A stretch of 64,000 nt of DNA, taken from the NCBI GenBank assembly GCA_963795855.1, contig CAWCIZ010000002.1:320001-384000 (forward strand). Reading direction: 5' to 3'. Both the position numbers and the translations under genes were made by a program. The notes beneath the pieces are model-generated. The model worked only from the letters and a program-made list of their open reading frames with translations, was not told the origin of the DNA and searched no databases. Below are positions 1 through 16,092 of this stretch, piece by piece (position 1 is the stretch's first letter; each line of letters opens with the position of its first letter). Source of the stretch: Vulcanimicrobiota bacterium (lineage in GTDB: Bacteria; Vulcanimicrobiota; Vulcanimicrobiia; Vulcanimicrobiales; Vulcanimicrobiaceae).

Positions 1-1
1 G

Positions 2-1978
2 TGCGCCTCGACCCCGCGCGCTCCCGAGCAAGGCGTCCTCATGGCGCTCGACCTCCTGCTGGCGCGCTTCGAACCGGGGTCCGCGGGCATCGAGTACCTC
101 GCGCACTCGACGACGATTGCGACTAACGCGCTGCTCGGTCAAATGCATCTCGAGCTTCCGCGCATCGCATTCGTTACGACCGCCGGCTTTCGCGACGTCA
201 TCGAAATCGGCCGGCAGAACCGCAGCGAAGTGTACAACTTGTTCGTGACGCGTCCGAGGCCGCTCGTTTCGCGCGAGGACCGCTTGACGGTTCGCGAACG
301 CATGGACTTCCACGGCAGCGTGCTCGTGCCGTTGGAGCAAGCCGAAATCGATCGCGTCGTTTCCGCGCTTCGCGAGCGGCGCTTCGACGCCGTCGCGATC
401 GGTCTGCTGCACGCATATGCGAATGACGAGCACGAACGCCGCCTCGCGCACGCCATTGAAGCAGCGCTGCCCGGCGTCCCGGTGACGCGCTCGTCCGCCG
501 TCGATCCGGAATACCGCGAATACGAACGTTTTTCCACCGCGGTGGTCAACGCTGCGCTGCTGCCGATCATTCGCCGATACGTGGACCGGCTGATCGTTGC
601 GCTGCGCGAGCGCGGCATCGATGCCCCGCTTTTCGTCATGCAGAGCAACGGCGGCATGGCTTCGGCCGAACGTGCCGCGCTTCGCCCTGCGTCGATTATC
701 GAAAGCGGACCTGCGAGCGGCGTCATCGCTGCCGCGGAACTCGCGAGATCGGCGGACGCGCGGCACGTGCTTTCGTTCGACATGGGCGGGACGACCGCAA
801 AAGCCGGCACGATCGTCGACGGCGTGGTGCAGATCGCAATGGAATTCGAAGCGGCCGGATCGACGCACAGCGGACGCTCCGTAAAAGGCAGCGGTTATCC
901 GGTGCGTTTTCCGTTCGTCGATCTCGCTGAGATCAGCGCGGGTGGAGGCACGATCGCACATGTCGACGGCGATTCGCTGCGCGTCGGACCGATTTCGGCG
1001 GGCGCGGATCCCGGGCCGGCCTGCTACGGCGCGAGCGATCGTGCAACCGTCACCGATGCCAACGTCGTGCTCGGCCGGCTCAACCAAAAAGCGCTCGTCG
1101 GCGGAACGTTTCCCATCGACGCGCGGCGCTCGTTTGAAGCGGTGGGCGCCCTTGCGGAACGTATCGGCCTCTCGACCCAGGAAACGGCGGCGGGCATCGT
1201 TCGAATCGTGGACGCGCAAATGGCCAAAGTGCTGCGCATCGTCACCGTCGAGCGCGGCTTGGATCCGCGCGACTTCACGATGGTCGCATTCGGCGGAAAC
1301 GGCCCGTTGCATGCCTGTGCGCTGGCCGACGAACTGGGAATGCGGCGCGTCATCGTGCCGGCGAATCCCGGCGTGTTTTCCGCGCTCGGACTGCTGGTCG
1401 CCGATCTGCGCGCGAGTTTCGTTCGGCCGATTCTGCGCGAAACGTCCGCGATGAACTACGCGCTGCTGCACACGCTGTTCGACGATCTGGAGGCACGCGC
1501 GCGGCAAGCGCTGCGCGAGCAGGGCGCGGCCGGCGAAAGGATCGCGTTCCGCCGCGAGTACGATGCGCGCTACCGCGGCCAGAGCTTCGAACTCGAGGTC
1601 GAGCACGCCGCGAGCATCGAGATCATCGTCGAACGCTTTCACGAAAAACACCGCCGCCGCTACGGTTACGCCGCCGACGAACCGGTCGAACTCGTGAATG
1701 CGCGATTGACGGCAACAGCGCCGGCCGGCGCGCACACGAACGGCGCTTCGTACGCCGCTTCCTCACCGCGGCGAGACGAGCTGCGCGCCGTCGAGGAACG
1801 CAGCGTATGGATCGACGGTGCGAAGGTGCAGACGCCGGTTTACGGTCGAGAAACGCTTCCGGCAGAGGCGACGATAACCGGCCCCGCGCTCGTCGAACAG
1901 TACGATTCGTGCACCTACGTGCCGCCGAAGTGGACGGCGAATACTCGCGGAGCGATGCTCGTGGTGGAACGCGCGTGA
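2..1978 (+). CDS. hyuA: Hydantoinase A / 5-oxoprolinase alpha-type subunit (5' truncated by window edge)
   Basis: Motifs STP..P, HSTTIATNALL, EYREYERFST, ESGPASG, DMGGTT, SAGADPGPACYG, FGGNGPLH. The frame is open from position 2. Confidence 0.9.
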   Translation, partial: CASTPRAPEQGVLMALDLLLARFEPGSAGIEYLAHSTTIATNALLGQMHLELPRIAFVTTAGFRDVIEIGRQNRSEVYNLFVTRPRPLVSREDRLTVRERMDFHGSVLVPLEQAEIDRVVSALRERRFDAVAIGLLHAYANDEHERRLAHAIEAALPGVPVTRSSAVDPEYREYERFSTAVVNAALLPIIRRYVDRLIVALRERGIDAPLFVMQSNGGMASAERAALRPASIIESGPASGVIAAAELARSADARHVLSFDMGGTTAKAGTIVDGVVQIAMEFEAAGSTHSGRSVKGSGYPVRFPFVDLAEISAGGGTIAHVDGDSLRVGPISAGADPGPACYGASDRATVTDANVVLGRLNQKALVGGTFPIDARRSFEAVGALAERIGLSTQETAAGIVRIVDAQMAKVLRIVTVERGLDPRDFTMVAFGGNGPLHACALADELGMRRVIVPANPGVFSALGLLVADLRASFVRPILRETSAMNYALLHTLFDDLEARARQALREQGAAGERIAFRREYDARYRGQSFELEVEHAASIEIIVERFHEKHRRRYGYAADEPVELVNARLTATAPAGAHTNGASYAASSPRRDELRAVEERSVWIDGAKVQTPVYGRETLPAEATITGPALVEQYDSCTYVPPKWTANTRGAMLVVERA

Positions 1979-2367
1979 CGGACGCGCGCGCGGAACTCGT
2001 GGAATGGTCGCAAGGCGTCGTCAACGCGCACGTCGACGCAGCGAGCGAAGCGATCGCGGAGTTTTGCGAAAAGCCGGGCTCCGCGAAGCGGCTTCATCGC
2101 ACCAGAAAGCGTCTGGCACGGTTGCGTGCGGTGCTCGACGATCTCTCCGATGTGGCCGGCATAAGCGGCGTCTTTTCCGATCGCATCGCGCGTCTGCACA
2201 AGTGCGCCGGTAAAGTGCGCGATGCGGACGTACTGCTGCAGCGGGTCGAGCAGTACGGCGAAAAGGCCTTCGGCGCCGAACTCGAACAACTGCAGCGCGT
2301 GCGCAAGCGATTATGTAAACGCGCCAAACGCGCTCGGCGCAAGCTCGAACGCGAGGTCGCGGGATGA
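1975..2367 (+). CDS. Half-CHAD domain protein (N-terminal half-like)
   Basis: GTG overlaps the hyuA stop (GTGA). LHRTRKRLARLR and GKVRDADV are CHAD motifs. Confidence 0.75.
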   Translation: MTDARAELVEWSQGVVNAHVDAASEAIAEFCEKPGSAKRLHRTRKRLARLRAVLDDLSDVAGISGVFSDRIARLHKCAGKVRDADVLLQRVEQYGEKAFGAELEQLQRVRKRLCKRAKRARRKLEREVAG

Positions 2368-2780
2368 CGAGCGCGCTTTCATCAGGCCGGGCCGAGCGCG
2401 GCATCGTGCGCGTTCATTTCGCAAGGGTTTTGAAGCGCGCGAGCGCGCTCGACCGCGGCGACGACGAAGCGCTGCACGCCTTTCGCTTGTGCTGCAAGCG
2501 GCTGCGTTTCGCGCTCGAGCGCCTCGACGATACGACGGGCCTCGAGCGGGCCCGCGCATTGCTCTCCGTTCTCACGGACGAACTGGGGTGGGCGCACGAC
2601 TGCGCGGAACTGGCGGCGTTCGCGGAAGATTGCGATGCGCCGCTCGTCGCCGCGCGCGCGCGGCGCGATGGCGATCGCTACGCTTTGCGCGCCCGGCGTT
2701 TGTGGCGGCACGCGTTTCGATCCGACGGCGAGTTCGCAGCGCTGGCTGCGTACGCCGGTTTTACGTGGAGCCCGTCATGA
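2364..2780 (+). CDS. Half-CHAD domain protein (C-terminal half-like)
   Basis: ATGA overlap. LHAFRLCCKRLRFALE and LTDELGWAHD are CHAD motifs. Confidence 0.8.
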   Translation: MTSALSSGRAERGIVRVHFARVLKRASALDRGDDEALHAFRLCCKRLRFALERLDDTTGLERARALLSVLTDELGWAHDCAELAAFAEDCDAPLVAARARRDGDRYALRARRLWRHAFRSDGEFAALAAYAGFTWSPS

Positions 2781-4378
2781 CGCTCGATCCGATATCCGCG
2801 GAAATCATCAAGGGCTCGCTGATCTACGCGAGCGAAGAGATGGGCATCGCGGTGCGCAACAGCGCGTATTCGCCGAACATCAAGGAACGGCTGGATCATT
2901 CGTGCGCGCTCTTCGATCGCGCCGGGCGGCTCATCGCGCAGGCCGAGCACATACCGGTGCACCTGGGCTCGCTGCCGTGGGGGCTGCGCGCGACGCTCGA
3001 CGTCATCGCGCGCGAGCACGGCGGCGTTCGCGAAGGCGAAATGTGGGTCGTGAACGATCCGTACGTTTCCGGCACGCACCTCAACGACGTCACGGTTATT
3101 CGTCCGATTTTTTTCTGCGGCGATCTCGTCGGGTTTGCCGCGAACAAAGCGCACCACACGGACGTCGGGGGCATGGTCCCGGGCTCGATGTCGGCAGATG
3201 CGCCGGATCTCTTTGCGGAAGGCTTGGTCGTGCCGCCGTCACGGCTGGTGGAAAACGATCGCGTCCTGGAGAGCACCGTCGCGCTGTTTCGAGCGAACTC
3301 GCGCACGCCCGAAGCGCGCAGCGGCGATCTTCGTGCGCAAACTGCCGGAAACCGGACGGGAGAACGGCGTCTGCTCGAAGTGTACGAACGCTTCGGACGA
3401 GATACGGTCGATGCCGCGGTGCAACGCCTGCTCGACGAAAGCGAGAGCAGCATGCGCGCCGCACTGGCAACGCTCGCGGACGGCGTCTACGAACAGCAGG
3501 ACGTGCTCGAAGATCGCGACGGGCGCGCGTCGATTCGTATCCGCTTACGTTTGACGCTTCGAGGCGGAACCGCGCATTTCGACTACGCCGGAACCGGTGC
3601 GCAGCTCTCGTTTCCGATGAACGCGGTGTACGGCGTAACGCTTTCAGGTGTGTACTACGCGCTTCGCGCCGTGACCGATCCGGCGATTCCCATGAACGAA
3701 GGCTGCTTTCGACCGGTGAGCGTCGACGTGCCGCCCGGAACGCTGCTCAATCCCCGGCGTCCGGCGCCCGTTTCCGGCGGTAACGTCGAGACCAGTACGC
3801 GCAACGCCGACGTCGTGCTCGCCGCCCTTGCGCAAGCCGCGCCGGATCGCGTTCCGGCGCAAAGCGGCGGAACGATGAGCAACGTGATGATCGGCGGAAC
3901 GCGCGGCGACGGCAGCACCTGGGCATTCTACGAAACGAACGGATGCGGCATGGGTGCGCGTCCGGGCATGGACGGCATCGACGGCATTCAGTGCCATATG
4001 ACGAACACGCTCAATACGCCGATCGAGGCGATCGAACGCGAGTTCCCGCTGCGTGTTGCGCGCTACGAACTCGCGAGCGGCACGGGCGGCGGCGGCCGGT
4101 ATCGCGGCGGCGACGGATTGATTCGCGCACTCACGCTGACCGAAGGCGACGCTCGCGTCTCACTGCTTGCGGAGCGGCATGCCGTCGCGCCGCGCGGCGC
4201 GCAAGGCGGAGGAGACGCCGCAACGGGGCGTCACGAACTCGTGGACGACACGGGAGCCGTTCAACGCTTACCGGCGAAAACGACGCGAGCGTTTGCCGTT
4301 GGCCAAACGCTCGTAATTCAGACGCCGGGTGGAGGCGGTTACGGAGAGGGAGTGGGCGAGGGCGACGGAGCCGGCTGA
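2777..4378 (+). CDS. hyuB: Hydantoinase B / oxoprolinase beta-type subunit
   Basis: MTLDPISAEII start (ATGA overlap), SPNIKERLDHSCALFD, HIPVHLGS, NDPY..GTHLND, HHTDVGG, TPGGGGYG. Confidence 0.93.
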   Translation: MTLDPISAEIIKGSLIYASEEMGIAVRNSAYSPNIKERLDHSCALFDRAGRLIAQAEHIPVHLGSLPWGLRATLDVIAREHGGVREGEMWVVNDPYVSGTHLNDVTVIRPIFFCGDLVGFAANKAHHTDVGGMVPGSMSADAPDLFAEGLVVPPSRLVENDRVLESTVALFRANSRTPEARSGDLRAQTAGNRTGERRLLEVYERFGRDTVDAAVQRLLDESESSMRAALATLADGVYEQQDVLEDRDGRASIRIRLRLTLRGGTAHFDYAGTGAQLSFPMNAVYGVTLSGVYYALRAVTDPAIPMNEGCFRPVSVDVPPGTLLNPRRPAPVSGGNVETSTRNADVVLAALAQAAPDRVPAQSGGTMSNVMIGGTRGDGSTWAFYETNGCGMGARPGMDGIDGIQCHMTNTLNTPIEAIEREFPLRVARYELASGTGGGGRYRGGDGLIRALTLTEGDARVSLLAERHAVAPRGAQGGGDAATGRHELVDDTGAVQRLPAKTTRAFAVGQTLVIQTPGGGGYGEGVGEGDGAG

Positions 4379-5184
4379 CCCGGTGCGCGGCCGCCGCAAA
4401 GAACGACTGCCTGCACGACGCTCTTGGCTGCGTCCTGTTCGGTGGCTTCGATGTCCGCCTGATACGACGAGATCGAATTCTCGAACACGTTCAAGGGATT
4501 TGCGCCGATCAGGTTGTTGCTGTTCATGTATCGCGGATCCATCGCGCGCGACGGGTCGTTCTTGCTGTTTCCGACGCCTGCGTTCAGAACGTCCGAGGAC
4601 GGCGCGCTGGGAGCCGGATTGGGCGGCGTGGTGGCCGTGGACGTACTGTTGATCGCGGCGTCGTATTCGTGACCGGCGGCCTGCAGTTCGCCGAGCTGCT
4701 GCGTCTGCACGAAACCGCTGATGAGATCGAGCGCGCGTTTTTGCTGTTCGTTTACGGCATACAATTGCGCGCGCATCTGCAAAAGACGTTTGTCGTCGGA
4801 GGAGTGAACCGACCTGGGGAATGCATACGGGTTCGTCAGCAGTTTCTCGACGGCTTCCGTATTGTTCACGAGCGGTCCGATGAGATTCTCCAAATGCTCG
4901 ACCGACATGTCTTCCGCGGCTTTGTTTTGCCCCGTCGCTGAAGCGTGAACGTAATCGTGGAAGAACGGTTTGCTCGTCGCGATGAGATGATCCGTGTCGA
5001 GCACTTTGGCGATCGCCGGCGTAATCGCGCGGCGTAAGCCCGTGCACAGCGGCGAACTGTGAATGTGCGTGATGGTCTTGAGCGGCGTCGGCGCGGGCTT
5101 CGGAGCGGAAACTGCCGTCGCGGGACTCGCGCTCAGCGCAACAAGGGCGCCGATAGCGAGCGCGGCGGTGAGGCGTTGGAACAT
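4339..5184 (-). CDS. Secreted hypothetical protein (signal peptide, helical, Pro-rich termini)
   Basis: MFQRLTAALAIGALVALSASPATA signal peptide. TATACT lies 7 nt upstream of the ATG. Confidence 0.7.
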   Translation of the reverse strand: MFQRLTAALAIGALVALSASPATAVSAPKPAPTPLKTITHIHSSPLCTGLRRAITPAIAKVLDTDHLIATSKPFFHDYVHASATGQNKAAEDMSVEHLENLIGPLVNNTEAVEKLLTNPYAFPRSVHSSDDKRLLQMRAQLYAVNEQQKRALDLISGFVQTQQLGELQAAGHEYDAAINSTSTATTPPNPAPSAPSSDVLNAGVGNSKNDPSRAMDPRYMNSNNLIGANPLNVFENSISSYQADIEATEQDAAKSVVQAVVLCGGRAPGQPAPSPSPTPSP

Positions 5185-5281: not shown

Positions 5282-6049
5282 TTAGGGTGCGGCGGCGCCG
5301 TCGAGATTAGCGCGGGCCATCGTGCGCAGCGTCGCGGCGTCGAGCGTGCTACAGTGTCTCTCGCGCCCGCGGCCGTAATCGCAGATTTGGGCGCCGCGAA
5401 AATCCGCGCCGCGCAGATCCGCGCCCGAGAAGTCGCTGCAGCGCAGACGGCCGTAATGCACGGTGCCGCCGTCATCATCCTTCTCGTGCGTGCAGAGCGC
5501 CGCGCCCTCGAATTGCACGCCGCGTAGGTCGGCATTGTGGAAATCGTCGGCGATCAGCTGTGCGTCGCGCAGTTGCACGCCCGATAAATTCGAGTTGCTG
5601 AAGTTACTTCCGACCACTTCCACGCCATTTAGGTTCTTGCCGTGCAGGTCGACGCTCGTAATCGAGCATCCGGCGCAATGTGCCAGCAGCGCTCGTGCCT
5701 GATCGTCGGCCAAGCCCTGCAGATACGATCCGGAAAGGTCGCTGCCTGCTACACGAACGTTCTGCAACTGCGCACCGTCCAAATGCGCTCCGCGCAGCTG
5801 CACGCCGGCAAGCATGGCATTGCTCAGGTTCGCACCGCGCAAATCGGCATCGCGCAGATCTATTCCGGCCAGATGCGCGCCGGACAAATTCGCGTTGCGC
5901 AGGTTTGCGCCGCGCAGATCGCTGCCTGCCCAGGCAACGTTGCGCAGATCCTGCCCGTGAAGATCCATGCCGGCCATGGAGCAGCCTACGCAGTTAGCCG
6001 GTACGCCGTTTGCGGCGGCCAAGAGTATCGTGACCAGCAGTGCGATCAT
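5282..6049 (-). CDS. Secreted pentapeptide-repeat protein
   Basis: Signal-like MIALLVTILLAAA, CxxC caps, A(D/N)LxG repeats, GGAG RBS. Confidence 0.88.
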   Translation of the reverse strand: MIALLVTILLAAANGVPANCVGCSMAGMDLHGQDLRNVAWAGSDLRGANLRNANLSGAHLAGIDLRDADLRGANLSNAMLAGVQLRGAHLDGAQLQNVRVAGSDLSGSYLQGLADDQARALLAHCAGCSITSVDLHGKNLNGVEVVGSNFSNSNLSGVQLRDAQLIADDFHNADLRGVQFEGAALCTHEKDDDGGTVHYGRLRCSDFSGADLRGADFRGAQICDYGRGRERHCSTLDAATLRTMARANLDGAAAP

Positions 6050-6130
6050 CGCTTTTCTCCTTGAATGTGAACGCAGGAAACCGGGCCCGTGCAAACGCGG
6101 ACATTTTCAAATATGCGGAAGGTCCGTAGT

Positions 6131-8186
6131 CTAGTGGTCGGAGCCGCTCATTTTACTGCCGCTAATTCGCGCTTTCGACAGATCGACGTTACGCAAATCG
6201 ACGTTGCTGAAATCACAGCCGCTGATTTCGGTTCCGTCCAAACGCGCGCCGTCCAGCGTCGAAGAACTCAGGTCGACGCCTTCCAGCTTCGCTCCGGAGA
6301 GATCCGCGCCGCGCAAGTTCGCATGATTCAGATCGACGCCGGTAAGCGTGATGTTGCGCAGATCCTGTCCGCTGAGATCGGCGTGATTGAAGTCGCATCC
6401 CATGCGGCAGCCCCGAAGCAGTGCTCCGGCCTGCGAGGGCGTCAACGCGCCTGCGTCGACGTCGCACCCGACCATGAGCACGCCCTCGAAGTTCACGCCG
6501 TCGAGTCTGTGCGTGCGACAGATCGCATCCGGTCAGTTTCGCGTGCGAGAAGTTTGCTCCGCGCAAATCCGCTCGAGAGAAGTCCGCACCCTGCAGTACG
6601 GCGCCCGAGAAATCGGCGTTGCGCAGATTGGCGCCGCTGAAATCGGGTCCGCTCAGCCGTTGCCCGCGGAAGTTGTGTCCCGAAAGATTCTGCCGGCTGT
6701 AATCGCAACCTACGCAGTTGAAGTTGCCGCTGCCCATCGCGCCGAACGCGCCGGCCATCGCCTGCGAAATCGTTTTCGAGATGTTCTTGCCGAAATCCGG
6801 ACCGAGAGGGTAGTAGGCGGTGCGCGGCATCGGCGGAATCGTAACATGCTGTTCGGGCACGTCGACGTTTACCGCCGGAATGTGCACGGTGCGAGCCGGC
6901 ATGTGAATATGCTGCGCCGGGATCAGGATCGTGCGCGGCTTCGGAGCCGGCGACGGACTCCGCGCGGGTGCCGGCGTTGCTTGCGCAACGAGCACCTTCG
7001 GCTTAACCGGCGACACGCTCTCGTGCAACACGACGGTCTTGCGCTGCGCGCTTCGAGTTCCGGTTTGCACCAGCTCTTGCGGAAGCGTGAACGCGAACGA
7101 CGGAGCAATGGTCTGCAAGAGGAAGAACAGCACGATCAATGCAGCGACGACTGCCCCCGTCGGGCCGAACGAAACGCGCGTGCGAATATTTCGGCCCGCG
7201 CGCAGCAAACGTTCCACGCGTACCGAAAGACCGCGGCGCGTAAGGAAGACGCCGGGCGCAGCGAGCGGGCGGTGCGGCCACGCCGTCACTTCCGCCATTT
7301 TGGTCAAGCACGTTGCGTAGGGACGCACCTCTTTGGTTTGGTCGACGACCCAGTCGTCGCATGCGACTTCGCGTTCGAGATCGAGCTGCTGCGCGATGTA
7401 GAGGACCGCGGGATTGAAGAAAAACAGTGCTTGAACGAATCGCTGCAGGCCGTTCGTCCAATCGTCCGCACGGCGCAAATGCGCGAGTTCGTGTAAAATG
7501 ATCTGATCGACTTCGGTTTGCGTCAGCGTGTCGAGCAGATGCTTCGGAATCAGAATCATGGAATCGAACAAACCGACGGCGATCGGCACCTCGATGCTCT
7601 CGCACGTGCACAGGCGCACTTCGCGCTCGCCTTTATCGGCGCTCGACCAGCGTTCCAGACGCTCGCGGTATTCGACGGGCAAGGGGAGAGCGTCGCTCTT
7701 GAGGTGCTCCAGGCGCCACAGATTCACGGCCAAACGCACGAGCAGCAGCAGCGCGGCGACGCACCAGAAAACGAAGATCGCGAACGCGACGTATTCGGGC
7801 AATGCAAAATGCAGCCGTCCCGGCAAACGGAATGACGGCGCGGCGGGCGTCGCCGTTGCGGGGTTCGCCGATTCGCCCAGCACGAACTGCGTCGGGCGGG
7901 TCGCTTTCAGCGCAGGCTTCGAAGCCGCGTGCGCCGCGGTTACCGCCGGCTGCGACGCGGCGTGCTGAACGACGATCTGCGGGAGCGCCGTTCCGAGCGG
8001 AAGCAGCAGCGACGCCGCGAGCGCGACGCACCAAGCTGCATACCGCGTCGTCGCGTTGACGTTCGGCAGCACGCGGAGCACGAGCCCCACGAGCAGCGCT
8101 AAAACCGCCGCCTCCCAAAGACTATTGAAAAGCGTAACGACGACGATGCGCGCCGCTGGTTCCAGCGCGCTCAGCAGACCCGGCAT
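6131..8186 (-). CDS. BlaR1/MecR1-like M56 metallopeptidase with C-terminal pentapeptide-repeat domain (+1 indel near 6507)
   Basis: TM helices, HELAHLRRAD (HExxH), EREVACDD, Pro-rich linker, then pentapeptide repeats that continue in the 6131..6496 frame. Confidence 0.88.
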
Positions 8187-8582
8187 TTAACGTTGCTCCT
8201 CGTACTTCTCGATGAGAGCTTTCAAGCGCTCGAGTTCCTCGTCGCTTGGGCGCTGCTCTTCAACTAGACGTAGCGCGAGCGCGGCGGATTTGTTTCCGAA
8301 AAAGCGTTGAACGAGCTGTCCGACGGCGGACTTGGCTGCGTCGTCGCGTTCGACGAGCGGTTCGTAAACGTACGCTCGGCCCTCTTCCTGATGGCACACG
8401 TAGCCTTTCTGCTCCAGAATGCGCATGGTAGTGAGCACCGTGTTGTACGCGAGCGGAGGCGGCGGGAGCGCCTCTGCAACTTCGCCGACGGTCGCGCGGC
8501 GTTTGCGCCACAGCACCTCCATCAAACGGAGTTCGGCTTCGGTAAGAGTTGAAGACTTTTTGCGGGCCACGAACACCTCCAC
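8187..8582 (-). CDS. BlaI/MecI/CopY family repressor
   Basis: LTEAELRLMEVLW, LAYNTVLTTMRILEQKGYV, GRAYVYEP. Abuts the M56 gene. Confidence 0.93.
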   Translation of the reverse strand: MEVFVARKKSSTLTEAELRLMEVLWRKRRATVGEVAEALPPPPLAYNTVLTTMRILEQKGYVCHQEEGRAYVYEPLVERDDAAKSAVGQLVQRFFGNKSAALALRLVEEQRPSDEELERLKALIEKYEEQR

Positions 8583-8586
8583 GGTT

Positions 8587-8650
8587 GCTCTTAATTCTTT
8601 AGTAGACTATACGTCAAACAGGCAGGCGTGTCAACTAAGGATTTAAGAGC
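8587..8650 (-). promoter_or_regulatory. sigma70 promoter (TTGACA-17-TATAGT) bracketed by two inverted putative BlaI operator boxes
   Basis: Minus strand: TTGACA at 8629-8634 and TATAGT at 8606-8611. 8587-8607 and 8630-8650 are 18/21 inverted repeats. Confidence 0.8.
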
Positions 8651-8831: not shown

Positions 8832-9332
8832 CTAGTACGCCAAATCCATGGAGTCGAGCTGGACCTTCTCCTCGCCGGTGATCACCATCGTGAGATCCAG
8901 CAAAATGATCAGGCGATCGCCTACTTTACCGACGCCTTGGATGTACTCCGTTCCCACGCCGGCGATCATGTCCGGCGCCGCTTCCACTTGTTCGACCGGA
9001 ATGTTGACCACCTCGGATACGCCGTCGACGATGATTCCGACCTTCTTCGCGCCGATTTCGGTGACGACGATACGCGTGCTCTTCGTGTGTTCGGCGCGCG
9101 CCATGGAAAAGCGCGTGCGCAAGTCAATGATCGGAATCAGCTGGCCGCGCAAATTTATGACGCCTTCCATGAAGCGCGGCGCACGCGGCACGTGCGTGAT
9201 CTCGACCATGCGGATGATCTCCTGCACTTGCGAGATGTCGACGCCGTACTCTTCATTTCCGAGGCGGAACGAAACCACTTGGACTCGTTCGCCGGACAAG
9301 TGTTGATTGTCGAGATGTTCTATTGTTGCCAT
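8832..9332 (-). CDS. cheW: Chemotaxis coupling protein CheW
   Basis: QVVSFRLGNEEYGVDI, EGVINLRGQLIPIIDL, GIIVDGVSEV. Confidence 0.96.
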   Translation of the reverse strand: MATIEHLDNQHLSGERVQVVSFRLGNEEYGVDISQVQEIIRMVEITHVPRAPRFMEGVINLRGQLIPIIDLRTRFSMARAEHTKSTRIVVTEIGAKKVGIIVDGVSEVVNIPVEQVEAAPDMIAGVGTEYIQGVGKVGDRLIILLDLTMVITGEEKVQLDSMDLAY

Positions 9333-9335
9333 GTC

Positions 9336-11171
9336 TTAGACCCCCGAATATTCGGCGCGCGCGACGCGGCCGCTGGCGTACGCCTCGGACACGAGCGAAT
9401 GAACGTCGATGATGAGTGAAATGGAACCGTTGCCCAGAATCGTCGCACCGGAAATGCCCGGGATGCGCCCGACCACGTCGGAAAGCGGCTTGATGACGAT
9501 CTCTTGTTCGCCTTGGAACGAGTCCACGACCAAGCCGACTTGACGGCCCTGGAGGCCGACGATCACCGTCATGACCTTGTCGGGATCGCGGTCCGCGCGA
9601 AGGTCGAAGAAATCGGCGATGCGTACGAGCGGCACCACTTGCCCGCGCAGAGTGATCACTTCGCTGCCGTGCACGGTGCGCACGTCTTCCATCTCGACCC
9701 GCTGCGATTCGATGACGGAGTCGAGCGGAATCGCATACAGTTCCTCACCCACGCGCACGAGCAGCGCTTGAATGATCGCGAGCGTGAGCGGCAATTTTAT
9801 CGTGAACGTCGTGCCGGCTCCCGGCACGGTGTTGACGTCGAAGACGCCTTTGAGGCGCGTGATGTTCTTCTTCACCACGTCCATCCCGACGCCTCGGCCG
9901 CTGACGTCGCTTACCACTTCCGCCGTAGAGAATCCCGGCGTGAAGATCAATTCGATGATCTCGCGATCCGTCAAGCGGTCGTCCGACCCGATCAGTCCTT
10001 GCTTGATGCCGCGCGCACGCACCCGATCCAGATCGATGCCGTTTCCGTCGTCGGAGACTTCGATGATGATCTGATTGCCCTCGTGATAGGCGTCGAGCGA
10101 GATGGTGCCGTGGCGCGGTTTGCCGCGGCGTTCGCGCTCCTCCGGCGTCTCGATGCCGTGGTCGACGCAGTTGCGCAGCAGATGCATGAGCGGATCGCCG
10201 ACTTCGTCGACGATCGTCTTGTCGAGATCCGTTTCGGCTCCGGCGATTGCCAGGTGCACTTCCTTGCCGCGCGCCTTTGCAACATCGCGCACCATGCGCG
10301 GAAACCGATCGAACACTTGTCCGATCGGCACCATGCGCACTTTCATGATCGATTCCTGAATCTCGTTCGTCGTACGCGCCAGCAGCGCCGAACTGTCCGC
10401 CAGTTCCTTGGTGAGCGGCGCGAGTTCTTTGGCATGCAGCGCGCGCTCGAGCGTATTGGCGATATCGGAGATGCGCGTGCGGTTGATGACGAGTTCGCCG
10501 ACCAGGTTGAGCAGCAAATCCAGGCGCTCGATGTCGACGCGAATCGTTTGGTGACTTTTCGTCTTGCCGGCTGCTTCCGTTCGTGCCTGCGGCGTTTGCA
10601 CTTCCGGACGCGGCGTTTGCGGAGCGCGCATCTGTTCCACTTGGCGCCACACTTCGGCTTCGAACGCGGCGATTTCGTCTTCGCTCACCACTTCTTCGGC
10701 AGCGGCCTCTTCGAACGAAACGTCGGAACCCGTCGCGCCTTCGATTACGTTCGACGTCTCGTCGTACACCGCAACGAACGAATCGACGCGCGCAATGTAG
10801 GCGGCAAGTCCGGCCGGCGTTTCGGTGCCTTGCACCGCGGCCTCGATCAGCCCGGTTAGGAAATCGCGGCCCGCGAACAATACGTCGACGCACGTTTCGG
10901 AGAGCGGCATGCGCTCTTTACGCAGCAGGTCGCACAAATTTTCGAGGCGGTGAGCAAGGCTCTGCACGTCCGTGAACTGCAGCATTCCGGAACTGCCCTT
11001 GATCGTGTGGAGGCCGCGGAAAAGCGAATTCACCAATTCGGCGTCAGGGCGGCCGCCGTTCACGAAGTCTTCGAGATGGAGGAGATCGGCGTCGAGCTGC
11101 TGCAGCAGCTCCTCGGCTTCGTCGCGGAAGTACGAGACGAATTCGGATCTATCGAACAGGTCTTCGCTCAT
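9336..11171 (-). CDS. cheA: Chemotaxis histidine kinase CheA
   Basis: Hpt LFRGLHTIKGSSGM, TIRVDIERLD, HLLRNCVDHGIE, GFSTAEVVSDVSGRGVGMDVV, C-terminal CheW domain. Confidence 0.97.
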   Translation of the reverse strand: MSEDLFDRSEFVSYFRDEAEELLQQLDADLLHLEDFVNGGRPDAELVNSLFRGLHTIKGSSGMLQFTDVQSLAHRLENLCDLLRKERMPLSETCVDVLFAGRDFLTGLIEAAVQGTETPAGLAAYIARVDSFVAVYDETSNVIEGATGSDVSFEEAAAEEVVSEDEIAAFEAEVWRQVEQMRAPQTPRPEVQTPQARTEAAGKTKSHQTIRVDIERLDLLLNLVGELVINRTRISDIANTLERALHAKELAPLTKELADSSALLARTTNEIQESIMKVRMVPIGQVFDRFPRMVRDVAKARGKEVHLAIAGAETDLDKTIVDEVGDPLMHLLRNCVDHGIETPEERERRGKPRHGTISLDAYHEGNQIIIEVSDDGNGIDLDRVRARGIKQGLIGSDDRLTDREIIELIFTPGFSTAEVVSDVSGRGVGMDVVKKNITRLKGVFDVNTVPGAGTTFTIKLPLTLAIIQALLVRVGEELYAIPLDSVIESQRVEMEDVRTVHGSEVITLRGQVVPLVRIADFFDLRADRDPDKVMTVIVGLQGRQVGLVVDSFQGEQEIVIKPLSDVVGRIPGISGATILGNGSISLIIDVHSLVSEAYASGRVARAEYSGV

Positions 11172-11191
11172 GGCCGCCGAGCCGAAACGGT

Positions 11192-11803
11192 TTACTCTAC
11201 GCCGAAGACGGCGAGAAGCGGCCCGAGAGAGCCGGTTTCCGGTATCAAGATGAACTGACCCGACACCGCCTTTTCCTTGTCCAGGAACGCGCTTTCGATC
11301 AAGAAGACGTCTTGGTCCGGCAGTATCGACATCAGGGTGCGGAATGCCGCCTGGATCGTCCCGTACGAAAGCGTCGGAACCGACGGAAGCACGTTCTGAC
11401 CGGTGAGATTGTTGATGGCGGATAGATACGAACCGGCGATGATGTTGCCGATCTCTTTGAGCGTGGAGTCGGCGATGGAATCGAAAACTTGAATGTCGCC
11501 GATGACGCGTTTGAGAAACGTCGAGACGAAATCGATCGCCTGTTCGCGGTCGAACAGCACGACGATTTGCCCGGGCGCCTCTCCGCGAATGTACATATGC
11601 AGCGCCGCCACCATCCGGTTCTCGTGACCGACGCGGCTGGCCAAATCGCGAAATTTGATGACGTCGATGCTCGGCTCGCTCAGATTGACCTTGGCGTTGA
11701 GCAGCTGCGAGAGCGCGGTTGCGGCATGGCCCGCGCCGATGTTGCCGACCTCTTTGAGCGCGTCCTTCTGCAAATCGTTGAGCTTGAGGCTTTGTGCGCT
11801 CAC
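11192..11803 (-). CDS. cheC: CheY-P phosphatase CheC
   Basis: Two ExxN motifs: DALKEVGNIGAG and STLKEIGNIIAG. GTG start overlaps the cheY stop. Confidence 0.92.
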   Translation of the reverse strand: MSAQSLKLNDLQKDALKEVGNIGAGHAATALSQLLNAKVNLSEPSIDVIKFRDLASRVGHENRMVAALHMYIRGEAPGQIVVLFDREQAIDFVSTFLKRVIGDIQVFDSIADSTLKEIGNIIAGSYLSAINNLTGQNVLPSVPTLSYGTIQAAFRTLMSILPDQDVFLIESAFLDKEKAVSGQFILIPETGSLGPLLAVFGVE

Positions 11804-12162
11804 GAAAGCACCTTGTTGATCGTCTCGAGAATCTTCGGAGGCTGGAACGGCTTGGTGATAAACGATTTCGCGCCGGCTTGAATCGCCTCGACGACCAGCG
11901 CCTGCTGTCCCATCGAGGTGCACATGATGATCTTCGCGTTGGGATCGTGGTTCATGATTTGCCGCACGGCGGAGATGCCGTCCATTTCCGGCATGACCAT
12001 GTCCATCGTGACGAGATCCGGGGTAAGCGACTTGTACTTGTCGACCGCTTCGGCGCCGTTTTGCGCCTCGCCGACCACGTCGAATCCGTTCTTGCTCAGA
12101 ATCCCCTTAATCATCATCCGCATGACGACGGCGTCGTCGACGATGAGGACCCGCTTGCTCAT
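11800..12162 (-). CDS. cheY: Chemotaxis response regulator CheY
   Basis: VLIVDD, PDLVTMDMVMP, CTSMGQQ, FITKPF. Confidence 0.96.
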   Translation of the reverse strand: MSKRVLIVDDAVVMRMMIKGILSKNGFDVVGEAQNGAEAVDKYKSLTPDLVTMDMVMPEMDGISAVRQIMNHDPNAKIIMCTSMGQQALVVEAIQAGAKSFITKPFQPPKILETINKVLS

Positions 12163-12198
12163 TCCTTGCTCCTAGAGGCCGATATTGGTACCTAATCC

Positions 12199-12226
12199 CC
12201 ATCGGCCGAAATCGGGGTTTTTGTTA
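12199..12226 (-). promoter_or_regulatory. sigma28 (FliA) promoter upstream of cheY
   Basis: Minus strand TAAC-N16-GCCGATGG. Confidence 0.6.
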
Positions 12227-12230
12227 GGCG

Positions 12231-12899
12231 CTACGCCAGGCCGCGGTTGCGCAGCTCCGTCGTCCGGCGATTGATAAAGTCCAGAATGGCGCGATCTTCC
12301 TCGGCCGTGACGCCTTGAAAGCGCAGACCGTGTGAGAATTTGCCGGAAGTCGGTATCTGCTCGACCCGCATTACCTCGGCCAAAACGGTAAGGGGCGCGG
12401 CAACTGCGCTGAGCGTCATCTTGATCTCGAGCGTTTGCCCCACTTTGCATTGCCGATCCATGATGAGCGCGCAACCGCCGCGGCTGATGTCGCGGATGCT
12501 GCCCTTCGCGAATTCGCCGACTCCCTGGCCGCCCGGCGCCATGCGCCAGAAGCCGCCGATGAGCGTGTCCAGTCGAACGCTGGAGCGTTTTTGCGCGCCG
12601 CCCGCTATCGTTTCGATGCGCTCGGGAATCGGAAAGAACGTCATGCCGTCGCGCACCTCCGCGATGGTTGCAGCGAAGCGGAATTTTCCGAGCGAGGTTT
12701 GATAGACGAAGACGGCGCGTTCGCCTTTGCGGCCGACCGTGTCGCCGACGGCAATGCGCTCGGGGCCGGATTCTTCGATGGAAACCGATCGCGCGGCGCG
12801 TCCGGTTATCGTCACGTCGACGAACGAATGCAGCGCCGGCAACTTGCCTTCGTCGACGCGCTTTTTCACGTTCGGGCGGAACAGCGATTTGAACATCAT
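12231..12899 (-). CDS. YcgR/MotI-like PilZ-domain flagellar brake protein
   Basis: QKRSSVR (RxxxR) and DISRGGC (DxSxxG) PilZ motifs. Confidence 0.85.
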   Translation of the reverse strand: MMFKSLFRPNVKKRVDEGKLPALHSFVDVTITGRAARSVSIEESGPERIAVGDTVGRKGERAVFVYQTSLGKFRFAATIAEVRDGMTFFPIPERIETIAGGAQKRSSVRLDTLIGGFWRMAPGGQGVGEFAKGSIRDISRGGCALIMDRQCKVGQTLEIKMTLSAVAAPLTVLAEVMRVEQIPTSGKFSHGLRFQGVTAEEDRAILDFINRRTTELRNRGLA

Positions 12900-15028
12900 G
12901 TTCGCGAACTCTCCATTTCCGCTTCATCGGTGGTCGCGATCTGACCGATGGATTCGACACGCAGACCCGGTGCGATCTCCGAGTACGAAAGCACGACCAG
13001 CTGCGGCGCGGCGCGCTCCGTCAAACGCTTGAGCGCCAGGCGCACCGAGGGCGAGCAGAGCACGATCGGGTGGAGGCCGGCACTTTGCGCCGCCGCCATT
13101 TGTTTGGTGAGCGAGCTGTAAATCTTCGCGACGGTGTTCGGATCCAAAAGCGCGTACGCGTCCTCACCGCGGCGCACCGCTTCGCCGAGCAGCGCTTCTA
13201 AACGCGGATCGACCGTAATGACCGAGAGGAGACCTTCTTCGGCGTATTCCGCGCAGATGTGACGAGCCATCGCAGCGCGCACGCGCTCGGTTAGGAAGTC
13301 GACGTCCTTGCTGACGCGCGCGGCGTCCGCCAAACTCTCGAGGATGAGCAGCAAATTGCGGATCGGGATGCGTTCGCGCAGCAGATTCTGCAGGACGCGT
13401 TGGATTTCGCCGACGGTAAGCAGATTCGGAACCAGTTCTTCGACGACGACCGGGTAGTGCGTCTTGACGTTGTCGAGCAGCGCCGACGTTTCTTGCCGTC
13501 CGAGCAGATCGGGCGAGTGGCCTTTGATGATTTCCGTGAGGTGCGTCGCGATGACGCTGGTCGGATCGATGACGGTGTAGCCCGCCATCTCGGCCTCCGA
13601 ACGCGCCGCATCCGAAATCCACAACGCAGGCAGATTGAATGCCGGTTCGGTCGTTGGAATGCCTTCGATGGGCGAGGTTGCGGTGCCCGGGTTCATCGCG
13701 AGCAAACGGCTCACCATGACCTCCGCGGACGCGACTTCAAGGCCGTAGATCTTCACGACGTACGTGCTCGGTTTGAGTTGCAGATTGTCGCGCACCCGAA
13801 TCGGCGGCACGACGATGCCGAGATCGCGCGCGGCATGGCGGCGAATCAGCGTTATGCGCTCGAGTAAGTCGCCGCCCTGCGTGGTATCGACCAGCGGAAT
13901 CAGGCCAAACCCGATCTCCAGTTCCATCGGATCGTAGGAGAGCAGCGGCACGACCGACTCCGCCGGCTTGACGGCCGGCGTCGCACTTGCGCCGCCGGCG
14001 ACGGCCGCGGCCTGCGCCGGCGTGGGCAGCTGCCCGACGCGCTGGTCGCGCGGGCGGTTGCGCGTGCGCAGGTAATAGATGAAGAGCAGCGCCGAGAGCG
14101 GCAGCATGAACCACCGCACCAAGCCGGCAAACCCGAAGAGCGCGGTCATGATCGCCGCGATCAGGATTGCGGTGGGCTGGCCGCTGAGCTGCTTGGTCAG
14201 ATCCGCCCCGAAATCCGATTCGGACGCGGCGCGCGTGACGATGATGCCGGTTGCGGTCGAGATTAGCAGCGCGGGAACTTGCGTGACGATGCCTTCACCG
14301 ACCGTCAGCAGCGTAAAGTGCTGCAGCGACTGCATCAGCGAGAGATGCTCTTGCGCGACGCCGACGATGAAGCCGCCGACGGTGTTAATCGCGACGATGA
14401 TGAGCGCGGCGATCGCGTCGCCGCGTACGAACTTGCTGGCGCCGTCCATCGCGCCGTAAAAGTCTGCCGAACGCTGAATGTCTTTGCGCCGCTGACGAGC
14501 TTCCGCTTCAGTGATGAGCCCGGCGTTGAGATCCGCGTCGATGGCGAGCTGTTTGCCGGGCATCGCGTCGAGCGTGAAACGCGCGGCGACTTCCGCGACG
14601 CGTCCGGCGCCGTTCGTGATGACCACGAATTGGATAACGATGAGAATCAGGAAGATCACGAAGCCGACGGCATAGTTTCCGCCGACCACGATGTTCCCGA
14701 AGAAATTGATGACCTCGCCGGCGTACCCGTGCAGCAGGATGGACCGCGTCGCGGTGACGTTGAGTGAAAGGCGAAACAGCGTTACGATGAGCAGCAGCGT
14801 CGGAAAGACGCTGAACTGCAGGGCGTTCTCCGCGTAGAGTGCCACGCCGATGATCAGCAGCGCGGCGCCGATGTTGATCGTCAGCAGCAAGTCGAGCAGC
14901 ACGGGAGGAATCGGCACGATCATCAGAATGACGAGCATGACCGATGCGCCGGCGACCCAAATGGGCGCCGTTCCCGCGATGCGGCTCAGGATGCCGCCGT
15001 TTTGCTGGACCTGCGAAACCGCAGCCAT
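12896..15028 (-). CDS. flhA: Flagellar export gate FlhA
   Basis: RVAEVAARFTLDAMPGKQLAIDADL, DFYGAMDGASKFVRGDA. Confidence 0.98.
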   Translation of the reverse strand: MAAVSQVQQNGGILSRIAGTAPIWVAGASVMLVILMIVPIPPVLLDLLLTINIGAALLIIGVALYAENALQFSVFPTLLLIVTLFRLSLNVTATRSILLHGYAGEVINFFGNIVVGGNYAVGFVIFLILIVIQFVVITNGAGRVAEVAARFTLDAMPGKQLAIDADLNAGLITEAEARQRRKDIQRSADFYGAMDGASKFVRGDAIAALIIVAINTVGGFIVGVAQEHLSLMQSLQHFTLLTVGEGIVTQVPALLISTATGIIVTRAASESDFGADLTKQLSGQPTAILIAAIMTALFGFAGLVRWFMLPLSALLFIYYLRTRNRPRDQRVGQLPTPAQAAAVAGGASATPAVKPAESVVPLLSYDPMELEIGFGLIPLVDTTQGGDLLERITLIRRHAARDLGIVVPPIRVRDNLQLKPSTYVVKIYGLEVASAEVMVSRLLAMNPGTATSPIEGIPTTEPAFNLPALWISDAARSEAEMAGYTVIDPTSVIATHLTEIIKGHSPDLLGRQETSALLDNVKTHYPVVVEELVPNLLTVGEIQRVLQNLLRERIPIRNLLLILESLADAARVSKDVDFLTERVRAAMARHICAEYAEEGLLSVITVDPRLEALLGEAVRRGEDAYALLDPNTVAKIYSSLTKQMAAAQSAGLHPIVLCSPSVRLALKRLTERAAPQLVVLSYSEIAPGLRVESIGQIATTDEAEMESSRT

Positions 15029-16092
15029 CAGGCGATCGTCTTTCTTTTAATCTTGTACACGAACGCGATGACTTGCGCCACGGCCGCATACAAGTTCGGC
15101 GGAATCGACTGCTCCAGTTCCACCTTTGCATAGAGCGTACGCGCGAGCGGCGGGTTCTCCATGATCGGAACGCCGTGTTCTTGTGCGATTTCGCGAATGC
15201 GCTTGGCAAGGAGATCCGCGCCTTTGGCCGTGACGACGGGCGCTTCCATCTTCACTTCATCCCACTCGAGCGCGACGGCGAAGTGGGTCGGGTTGGTTAC
15301 GACGACGGTCGCTTTCGGCACGGCCGACATCATGCGCCGGCGCGCAAATTCGCGCTGGCGGCGCTTGACGGCGCCCTTGGCTTCGGGGTTGCCTTCCGAC
15401 TGCCGGAACTCGTCCTTCACCTCTTGCTTGGTCATCTTGAGGTTTTCTTCGTACTGCCATTTCTCGTACGCATAATCGAGCAGCCCGACGATGACCAGCA
15501 GCAAACCGAATTTCCAGCCGATCGAAAAAATCAATTCGCCGACGAACGAGAGCATGTGCTGCGGCGAGAGCTGACCAAGCATCAGCAGCGTGTTGACGTT
15601 TCCGGCGACGCTCGAGTAAATGATGACTAGCACCGCGCCTAGTTTGAGCAGCTGCTTGGCAAGATTGACGAGCACTTGTCTGGAGAACATGCGTTGAAAG
15701 CCGGTCAGCGGATTGATCTTGTTGAAGCTGGGCGCGATCGGCGTAAGCGAAATCAGGAAGCCGGTCTGCAAAACGTTGACGCCGATGCCGGCGATTACCG
15801 CCGCTCCGAAAAGCAAACCCAAGAGCAGGGCGAGGCCGCCGAATCCGCGCGCGAACAGCGTCCATACCGACGTGATCGTGAAGTCCTGATGCTCGTGAAT
15901 ACGCCACAGAATCTCCTGAACGCTCGTCGAAAGCGAGCCCAGAGCAGCCGGGGTACACGCGTGCAGCACGAAAACGCCGGCAAGGAAGACCGATGCGCCG
16001 GCGAGATCGGGGCTCTTCGCAACTTGACCGCGTCCTCGCGCCTCTTCACGGCGCTTCGGTGTGGCCTTTTCAGTCTGCTCGGGTCTTGCCAC
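15028..16092 (-). CDS. flhB: Flagellar export switch FlhB
   Basis: TEKATPKRR, MTKQEVKDE, NPTH autocleavage motif. Confidence 0.97.
   Translation of the reverse strand: MARPEQTEKATPKRREEARGRGQVAKSPDLAGASVFLAGVFVLHACTPAALGSLSTSVQEILWRIHEHQDFTITSVWTLFARGFGGLALLLGLLFGAAVIAGIGVNVLQTGFLISLTPIAPSFNKINPLTGFQRMFSRQVLVNLAKQLLKLGAVLVIIYSSVAGNVNTLLMLGQLSPQHMLSFVGELIFSIGWKFGLLLVIVGLLDYAYEKWQYEENLKMTKQEVKDEFRQSEGNPEAKGAVKRRQREFARRRMMSAVPKATVVVTNPTHFAVALEWDEVKMEAPVVTAKGADLLAKRIREIAQEHGVPIMENPPLARTLYAKVELEQSIPPNLYAAVAQVIAFVYKIKRKTIA

Follow-up and report, generated by a model that had tools for sequence, protein, structure and literature searches.

What does a repressor-protease pair of the penicillinase type respond to when its sensor carries no penicillin-binding domain? 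This question is raised by a three-gene cassette in a 64-kb stretch of DNA (the window, meaning the whole stretch of 64,000 nucleotides that was analysed) from a 3.06-Mb, 86% complete assembly in six contigs of a Vulcanimicrobiota bacterium, from a family of mostly uncultured bacteria. The cassette consists of blaI, encoding a repressor, a gene for an M56-family protease that ends in a tip of pentapeptide repeats (the sensor), and a gene for a secreted pentapeptide-repeat protein (PRP) that is a paralog of the tip. We propose that regulated proteolysis very probably controls an envelope-maintenance regulon. The fuller reading, in which the sensor tip and the secreted paralog moreover share a ligand, with an exposed periplasmic polypeptide as its likeliest class, is somewhat favoured. 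The signals of most BlaR-like sensors and the biochemical role of exported PRPs are still to be found; the predicted operator supplies a reporter and a defined regulon, so that both questions become testable. The work also places the function-less DUF5916 barrel family and a family of unannotated peptides in one predicted stress circuit, within a lineage whose cultured representative is diderm, with an outer membrane (PMC9758169).

Gene organization and conservation of the cassette

The DNA itself shows the genes and their catalytic motifs, which are intact; it also shows the fusion as it occurs in relatives, the synteny, the promoter and a conserved palindrome with its neighbours. The three genes lie on the minus strand, as their coordinates and Pfam matches confirm (Table 1); this co-orientation had been reported in an earlier note on this DNA. 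Both Peptidase_M56 and Pentapeptide are found by Pfam in the M56 gene, and the Pentapeptide matches of the whole assembly are those of the cassette alone. The fusion of the repeats to the protease and the three-gene synteny, on which the note had built, are well maintained: in 20 further loci, hand-picked for spread across genera out of 130 tip-matching genomes, blaI and the fused protein are always present (20/20, with M56 and repeats in one frame), and the secreted PRP is the next gene in 16. By hand count, 92 of the best 120 database matches to the tip carry both PF05569 and PF00805. The tip was matched in 120 of 160 family genomes (Vulcanimicrobiota/Eremiobacterota, including the unpublished G227), and the named homologs of the cassette proteins among the database matches come from these lineages. 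Related genomes share kinship, so these tallies and those below indicate spread and are not statistics; no claim depends on unpublished genomes alone.

In this assembly an extra base at about 6505-6507 shifts the M56 frame relative to three same-genus orthologs, and the tblastn match breaks at genome position 326507. The assembly is probably at fault here, since all 20 relatives' loci keep the fusion in one frame. A genuine frameshift, by which the strain would make a truncated sensor with an aberrant tail from a cassette damaged here and intact in relatives, appears unlikely. The extra base does lie outside any long homopolymer run, but the same gene is broken at other positions in other few-contig assemblies, the sequence past the break is still 60-75% matched to orthologs, and frame changes compared with at least one relative affect as many as 15 of 145 loci in the six-contig assembly (some of these being the relative's own).

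The sensor protein

The protease assignment is clear (PF05569, 126 bits versus a gathering threshold of 31). Its HExxH residues, third-ligand Glu and Asp align with H201/E202/H205, E242 and D246 of Staphylococcus aureus BlaR1, and all five are invariant in 85/85 orthologs. Together with PF03965 in the repressor and four hydrophobic segments, this bears out the BlaI-BlaR1-type layout that had been proposed. Hydropathy, charge bias and the model of an ortholog agree on four segments with the C-terminus outside; an Arg-rich stretch precedes the last segment and paired Cys residues follow it. With the likeness to BlaR1, these features point to a tip that faces outward, as previously suggested, and the sensor tail is predicted to lie outside the cytoplasm. 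An invariant Phe nine residues ahead of an invariant Arg recalls the BlaR1 autocleavage site, a correspondence in spacing only that falls outside the BlaR1 alignment. Pfam identified no transpeptidase or penicillin-binding domain in the sensor, and the NCBIfam blaR1_generic score is 76 bits versus a cut-off of 400. The place of the penicillin-binding domain is taken, as the note had recognized, by a Pro-rich stalk and two capped pentapeptide blocks.

Among orthologs the stalk varies from 90 to 187 residues (median 132), is only 30% identical as compared to 81% in the protease core, and has a low predicted local distance difference test score (pLDDT) in the ortholog model. The tip is better conserved (mean identity 63%), and in the model of an intact ortholog (mean pLDDT 79.8, mostly >90 over helix residues 481-660) it is confidently predicted to fold as a two-block beta-helix. 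Foldseek matches the fold of this model to MfpA, HetL, QnrB1 and BlaR1; PF00805, model and Foldseek agree on a pentapeptide domain of at least eight tandem repeats forming a quadrilateral beta-helix. Conservation calculated face by face ranges from 0.56 to 0.78, and no clear binding face of the tip stands out.

The secreted pentapeptide paralog

The secreted PRP follows the same plan as the tip (block, helix, CxxC, block). It carries both caps and eight Cys residues in four pairs, six of which residues are invariant in 16/16 sequences. Its paralogy to the tip, already recognized earlier, is substantiated by an ortholog pair in which 205 residues, the helix and the second cap among them, align at 34% identity. 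The N-terminus is hydrophobic, although the putative signal peptide is short and without a basic n-region; an extracytoplasmic location is predicted from hydropathy and charge bias, from the likeness to BlaR1 and from the pairing of the Cys residues. The note had set this PRP against characterised pentapeptide proteins (Qnr, MfpA), which it regarded as cytoplasmic. The PRP does not belong to the gyrase-protecting Qnr/MfpA group by NCBIfam score, which is far under cut-off (best 53 bits versus 240). Exported disulfide-capped PRPs have already been described: Rfr32 has a signal peptide and Rfr23 a Cys39-Cys42 bracket (PMC8145042).

BlaI, its promoter and predicted operators

BlaI is assigned by PF03965 (110 bits versus gathering 22.6), by the adjoining M56 gene, and by matches to MecI/BlaI structures (E 6e-9 to 2e-5); it scores under every NCBIfam equivalog cut-off. 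Upstream of blaI lies a sigma70-type promoter of a quality for which 0.7 sites are expected in shuffles, flanked by two palindromes of the ACTAA-N4-TTAGT type that are predicted to be BlaI binding sites. Two such sites occur 5' of blaI in all 17 ortholog regions from which the search matrix was formed (4 of 21 regions were set aside, being three paralogs and one with a different upstream gene), and a site is present in 18 of the 20 new loci. Operator 2 is the second-best site genome-wide, although it belonged to the training set. A strict pattern, in which an operator site is joined to a -35 box, matched 217 times, in 98 of 161 family genomes (including the unpublished G311, G260 and G294), versus 11 for a reversed control. 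With the matrix, 10 sites are found in this genome at 17 bits (two of them training sites) versus 1 in shuffles. Only strong and paired sites exceed chance; weak matrix matches do not. Weak single sites under about 15 bits and a tRNA match at C1:612956 were rejected as regulon evidence, as was the site at C3:274889, which to us looks like a GntR direct/inverted repeat.

The predicted regulon and its CBM9/DUF5916 barrel

The genes of this genome that have a strong or paired site in front of them are three of the five paralogs of a 700-residue CBM9_1/DUF5916 protein (C3:914k, C5:68k, C2:210k), an S9 peptidase gene (C2:584k) and a 39-codon open reading frame (ORF; C1:541k), where chance would give 0.0024 sites per gene (350 nucleotides). 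To these can be added 40 further sites, drawn from the strict-pattern matches once those previously assigned to the promoter of the PRP cassette had been set aside. Behind them come, as first genes, ten blaI genes (one cut off after its start by a contig end), nine barrels, seven small ORFs with signal peptides, four secreted PRPs, four FxGWG peptides, two DUF4097 genes, and one each for a helical-repeat protein, an aspartyl protease-PDZ protein, a DUF5700 peptidase and an unclear product. The DUF4097 domain is also found in LiaX of Enterococcus faecalis. No beta-lactamase is among these first genes. Nearly all products of the predicted regulon are exported or tiny, in line with the envelope-directed output that the note had suggested; the operator, the dispersed regulon, the barrel as usual fourth gene and the small peptides were absent from it. 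In two relatives' loci (L049, L285) a DUF4097 gene heads the operon, between operator and blaI.

The barrel gene follows the cassette in 14 of the 20 loci and is divergent in one more; four genes in a row are found in 12, and in six loci the barrel starts 2-3 nucleotides past the PRP stop codon. When barrel genes were picked by similarity alone (n=41), 8 stand behind a cassette gene and 11 have a site of their own. The barrel model (pLDDT 88) suggests a CBM9-fold domain followed by about 24 barrel strands. The N-terminal domain matches CBM9 structures (Z 19-20, root mean square deviation (rmsd) 2.8-2.9), whereas MtrB, TonB-dependent transporters and ushers (FimD) tie for the barrel part (Z 14-16, rmsd 3.8-6.8). 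No Pfam match to a TonB-dependent transporter or usher was found in the barrel, and a sequence search of its N-domain against solved structures, including those of CBM9, gave nothing meaningful. The family assignment is near threshold: PF06452 and PF19313 are both just over cut-off in the C5 paralog, CBM9 is just over cut-off and DUF5916 just below it (21.3 versus 22.6) in the ortholog of genome G002, and one paralog is without a match; Atlas clusters carry both CBM9 and DUF5916 at 19-50%. A modelled fold in common does not indicate function; carbohydrate binding by the CBM9-fold domain is a possibility. Complex prediction for barrel and secreted PRP scored 0.00 in two runs made with no controls and is evidence neither way. 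In one genome a PqqD-like gene immediately follows the barrel (L031:12858-13256).

FxGWGP peptides and other small ORFs

The 39-residue ORF at C1:541.0k (L057:3998-4117, minus strand) has a ribosome-binding site and shows wobble-position variation. Its homologs stand behind paired operators, as first or only ORF, in at least 12 genomes, and in one genome the peptide ORF lies between operator and blaI. The C-terminal motif near the stop codon (FxGWGP, then Arg, Lys or another allowed residue, then a hydrophobic residue, the last codon also allowing TGG) was found in 141/160, 3/3 and 18/18 genomes of three related families (162/181), compared to 1/69 other genomes and one control match; the survey includes the unpublished genomes G247, G036, G260, G227, G251 and G258, of which G036 is also in other tallies. 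This genome has three unannotated FxGWGP(R/K) ORFs of 38-45 residues (C1:541.0k, C3:274.8k, C3:283.2k), one operator-controlled, one heading a GntR-ABC operon and one stand-alone. More generally, the family stands before blaI, GntR-ABC or DUF4097-like genes, or alone. The 39-residue peptide has no Pfam match, and the best Atlas score of 0.76 is a lead at most. Two interpretations were discarded: msrA as the target at loci of the C1:541k type, where the peptide is the first gene, and an attenuator leader, since several copies are not followed by any gene on their own strand.

Another group of operator-controlled ORFs of about 50-65 residues (L274, L277, L279, L280, L287, L290, L291) combines a signal-peptide-like start with P-(L/K)-K/T-I-I-A-x-V. 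At C5:56.5-58.6k (L061) an ECF (extracytoplasmic function) sigma factor gene diverges from a DUF4097 and DUF6249 pair, and relatives place the FxGWGP peptide before similar genes.

Paralogous cassettes

In paralogous cassettes a helical repeat replaces the PRP tip, and the barrel usually follows or flanks. In four of these the helical repeat recurs, at 32-41% identity, in a secreted protein encoded by the next gene, so that sensor tip and next gene share their repeat type in both kinds of cassette. The main BlaI clade of the helical-repeat cassettes differs in its recognition helix and goes with an ACCTAA-N4-TTAGGT site, which also precedes barrels of its own. This assembly holds one further blaI-M56 pair, whose BlaI belongs to the clade with the different recognition helix and site, and whose secreted partner gene is not adjacent (C1:142.6-145.0k, L058; helical 'DHGV' repeat tip, other operator type). 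As the barrel, S9 and peptide sites in this genome are of the window's type, they point to the BlaI of the window as regulator. A set of 80 loci was taken from other phyla, for the most part Acidobacteriota and Gemmatimonadota. In 16 of them (mostly Acidobacteriota) blaI occurs with an M56 gene that carries a helical repeat; the profiles used detected no barrel at these 16, suggesting that the matched design of sensor and partner is wider than the link with the barrel. ABC-permease-like genes, read by eye, often follow helical-repeat cassettes in other phyla.

Two further arrangements were seen. In L077 and L087, two blaI-M56 operons, one with a PRP tip and one with a helical tip, diverge from common operators. 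M56 sensors with HEAT-like repeat tips and the same operator occur in a neighbouring family (L089-L093), with no secreted paralog adjacent.

Proposed mechanism and alternative explanations

We propose a self-repressed BlaI/M56 switch, with topology, BlaI binding, autocleavage and BlaI cleavage modelled on BlaR1. BlaI would hold its own promoter via the flanking operators; an envelope signal, which is likely to be damage, would reach the predicted periplasmic tip and trigger BlaI cleavage, and loss of BlaI would release the predicted regulon of exported proteins. Comparative genomics suggests that the secreted repeat protein and the CBM9/DUF5916 outer-membrane barrel would form the core output, with exported peptidases, DUF4097 proteins and small peptides as variable members. 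The secreted paralog, which the note took for an induced effector or decoy, would bind the tip's ligand and titrate it as feedback. The ligand is the least certain element; nearly all targets are exported or tiny and several are peptidases, for which reason an exposed periplasmic polypeptide, such as envelope protein that is damaged or has failed to assemble, or cationic peptides, seems the most likely class.

Several observations weigh against parts of this proposal. The BlaI scissile pair aligns to Arg-Leu rather than staphylococcal Asn-Phe, albeit with a hydrophobic P1' retained. At a threshold of 11 bits the matrix finds 22 sites, fewer than the 31-39 in block shuffles. At the threshold used, 22 of the 41 barrel genes have neither cassette nor site, and the S9 site is not conserved, being present in 2 of 20 S9 loci (this genome and one PRP-S9 operon; one of the 20 contigs begins too near the gene to judge). 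The gene msrA was seen behind the peptide in three loci and no more. Other BlaI clades in relatives share the window's operator, so that some members of the regulon may be under the control of other sensors. Finally, the tip and the secreted PRP are acidic (median net charge -6 and -7), as is common in pentapeptide repeats, which makes charge a weak support for a cationic ligand.

A different view of the signal has a modest chance of being right, namely that the stalked tip reads the state of the outer-membrane barrel across the envelope, in the manner of TonB-like or cell-surface-signalling proteins, with the PRP as partner or cargo of the barrel and the signal being the barrel's substrate, possibly a glycan bound by its CBM9-fold domain. 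The length of the stalk, the few nucleotides between PRP stop and barrel start in six loci, and the structural match of the N-domain to CBM9 would all be explained, as would the occurrence of the barrel after both kinds of cassette and of the helical clade's own operator type before its own barrel; moreover, TonB_C is the second commonest M56 architecture (bioRxiv 10.64898/2026.04.08.717257). However, the barrel lies outside the operon in this genome, the 16 of 80 loci from other phyla have the M56-helical-repeat cassette without a profile-detected barrel, sugar uptake leaves the peptidases and tiny proteins of the regulon unexplained, and a common fold proves no function. A broader scheme, of a trans-envelope system not yet described, has a likewise modest chance. 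In it the M56 sensor and its secreted partner would consist of one interchangeable repeat (beta-helix or helical) and would serve an uncharacterised class of roughly 24-stranded CBM9/DUF5916 outer-membrane channel, and FxGWGP peptides, as a class-wide family, would be a shared signal or effector of several envelope regulons. If true, this scheme would give exported pentapeptide proteins and DUF5916 their first functions.

That the FxGWGP peptides themselves are exported signals or precursors sensed by the tip, in a positive feedback damped by PRP and S9 peptidase, is quite unlikely. Their position directly behind paired operators, and once between operator and blaI, the variable N-terminus with a fixed C-terminal motif, and the copy that heads a GntR and ABC exporter operon would be in keeping with such a role, but the peptide is without a signal peptide, and copies are also found ahead of GntR-ABC and DUF4097-like genes and in genomes without a tip match. 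Such contexts would be more natural for a general effector of stress than for a dedicated ligand. Highly improbable is a drug-resistance module, with BlaR1-like beta-lactam sensing or Qnr-like protection of gyrase by the PRP. It is suggested by the family names of BlaI and M56 and by the weak NCBIfam Qnr and MfpA matches, yet the sensor has no transpeptidase domain, those matches are far under cut-off, the N-terminus of the PRP is hydrophobic and its Cys residues are arranged in four pairs, and the first genes behind the 40 sites include no beta-lactamase. Release of the envelope-maintenance regulon by regulated proteolysis is the reading we retain.

Relation to known systems

In its predicted working the cassette resembles BlaI-BlaR1, yet without a penicillin-binding domain it stands outside the canonical members. 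With BlaI-BlaR1-BlaZ and MecI-MecR1-MecA of S. aureus it shares the repressor family and the M56 HExxH...E site, as well as, by prediction, the four-segment layout, promoter-flanking operators and an induced exported protein of the same fold class as the sensor (PMC9834060; PDB 8EXP, 1SD6). It differs from them in the PRP tip on a long stalk instead of a penicillin-binding domain, in the Arg-Leu cut site and the palindrome, and in the diderm host with a dispersed regulon that includes outer-membrane barrels and in which no beta-lactamase was found (PMC9834060). Non-canonical BlaIR pairs such as CenIR of Clostridioides difficile likewise lack a transpeptidase domain and control exported envelope proteins, but CenR ends in a short disordered tail, and in the parts of the preprint at hand no matched secreted paralog or barrel is described (bioRxiv 10.64898/2026.04.08.717257). 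Only about 6% of M56 proteins carry a penicillin-binding domain, so that BlaR-like proteins without it are the majority (bioRxiv 10.64898/2026.04.08.717257). The note's reading is supported as to fusion and synteny and was overstated as to novelty. As exported disulfide-capped PRPs are known as well, neither half is new alone. Rfr23, Rfr32 and At2g44920 are likewise exported quadrilateral beta-helices with disulfide caps, including a CxxC bracket (PMC8145042; PDB 2O6W, 2F3L, 3N90), but they are stand-alone proteins, none of them described in the available part of that source as a protease sensor or regulon member (PMC8145042).

Cell-surface signalling (outer-membrane transporter, anti-sigma factor, ECF sigma factor) similarly ties regulated proteolysis to a self-controlled outer-membrane barrel; in contrast, the cassette uses a repressor and an M56 protease, and its barrel, with which contact is putative, is a CBM9/DUF5916 protein of about 24 modelled strands instead of a TonB-dependent transporter (PMC7593790). 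A working analogy for the secreted PRP is LiaX of E. faecalis, which is induced and exported, binds peptides active on the envelope and adjusts the sensing system to which it belongs, although LiaX is under two-component control, unrelated in sequence and not a sensor paralog (PMC6936494). In a search of mostly open-access literature we found no paper on the pentapeptide-M56 fusion, DUF5916, the FxGWGP peptide or the CBM9-DOMON barrel, and nothing relevant on Eremiobacterota with BlaI. The word 'pentapeptide' is absent from the main text of the CenIR preprint, whose list of 254 architectures may include the fusion (bioRxiv 10.64898/2026.04.08.717257).

Feature coordinates and flanking genes

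Table 1. Features of the cassette and its promoter region (window positions).
Feature	Position	Strand	Evidence
Predicted BlaI operator 1, pseudo-palindrome YTAA-N4-TTAR, overlapping the -35 box	8633..8648	.	20.8 bits
Sigma70-type promoter TTGACA-17-TATAGT	8606..8634	-	11/12 consensus matches
Predicted BlaI operator 2, just 3' of the -10 box	8589..8604	.	24.0 bits
blaI, BlaI/MecI/CopY-family repressor, 127 aa	8187..8570	-	PF03965 (Penicillinase_R) E 1e-31
M56 gene with pentapeptide tip	8186-6131	-	Peptidase_M56 E 2e-36, Pentapeptide E 5e-22
M56 zinc-protease and membrane region, four hydrophobic segments	7101..8186	-	Pfam, hydropathy, BlaR1 alignment
HELAH	7479-7493	-	M56 active-site motif
Third-ligand motif EREVACD	7356-7376	-	
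Candidate autocleavage loop PGVF	7245-7256	-	
Last of the four hydrophobic segments	7101-7166	-	
Pro/His-rich, poorly conserved stalk, predicted periplasmic	6720..7100	-	
Pentapeptide beta-helix tip: two blocks, each with a Cys-pair cap, and a short joining helix	6131..6719	-	
First cap NCVGCD	6702-6719	-	
Second cap, in shifted frame	near 6395-6409	-	
Secreted pentapeptide protein, tip paralog, 255 aa, eight Cys	5282..6049	-	PF00805 E 6e-41

The neighbours at window positions 1-4378 resemble hydantoinase/oxoprolinase subunits with CHAD genes, and those at 8832-16092 resemble a chemotaxis/flagellar export block (cheW, cheA, flhA, flhB). Both blocks are kept in close relatives, without the operator; among these flanking genes Pfam was checked for CHAD and CheW only. 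The 281-residue gene at 4339-5184 (minus strand) follows the cassette in about ten loci, but was rejected as a cassette member, having a -10-like box of its own and no operator. Its secreted product has no Pfam match and carries an LK(T)IxxV motif. The same motif occurs at C3:75.0k, C2:597.3k, C3:791.3k and C3:1018.8k in proteins resembling TonB-dependent receptors, where it sits at what is presumably the place of the TonB box.

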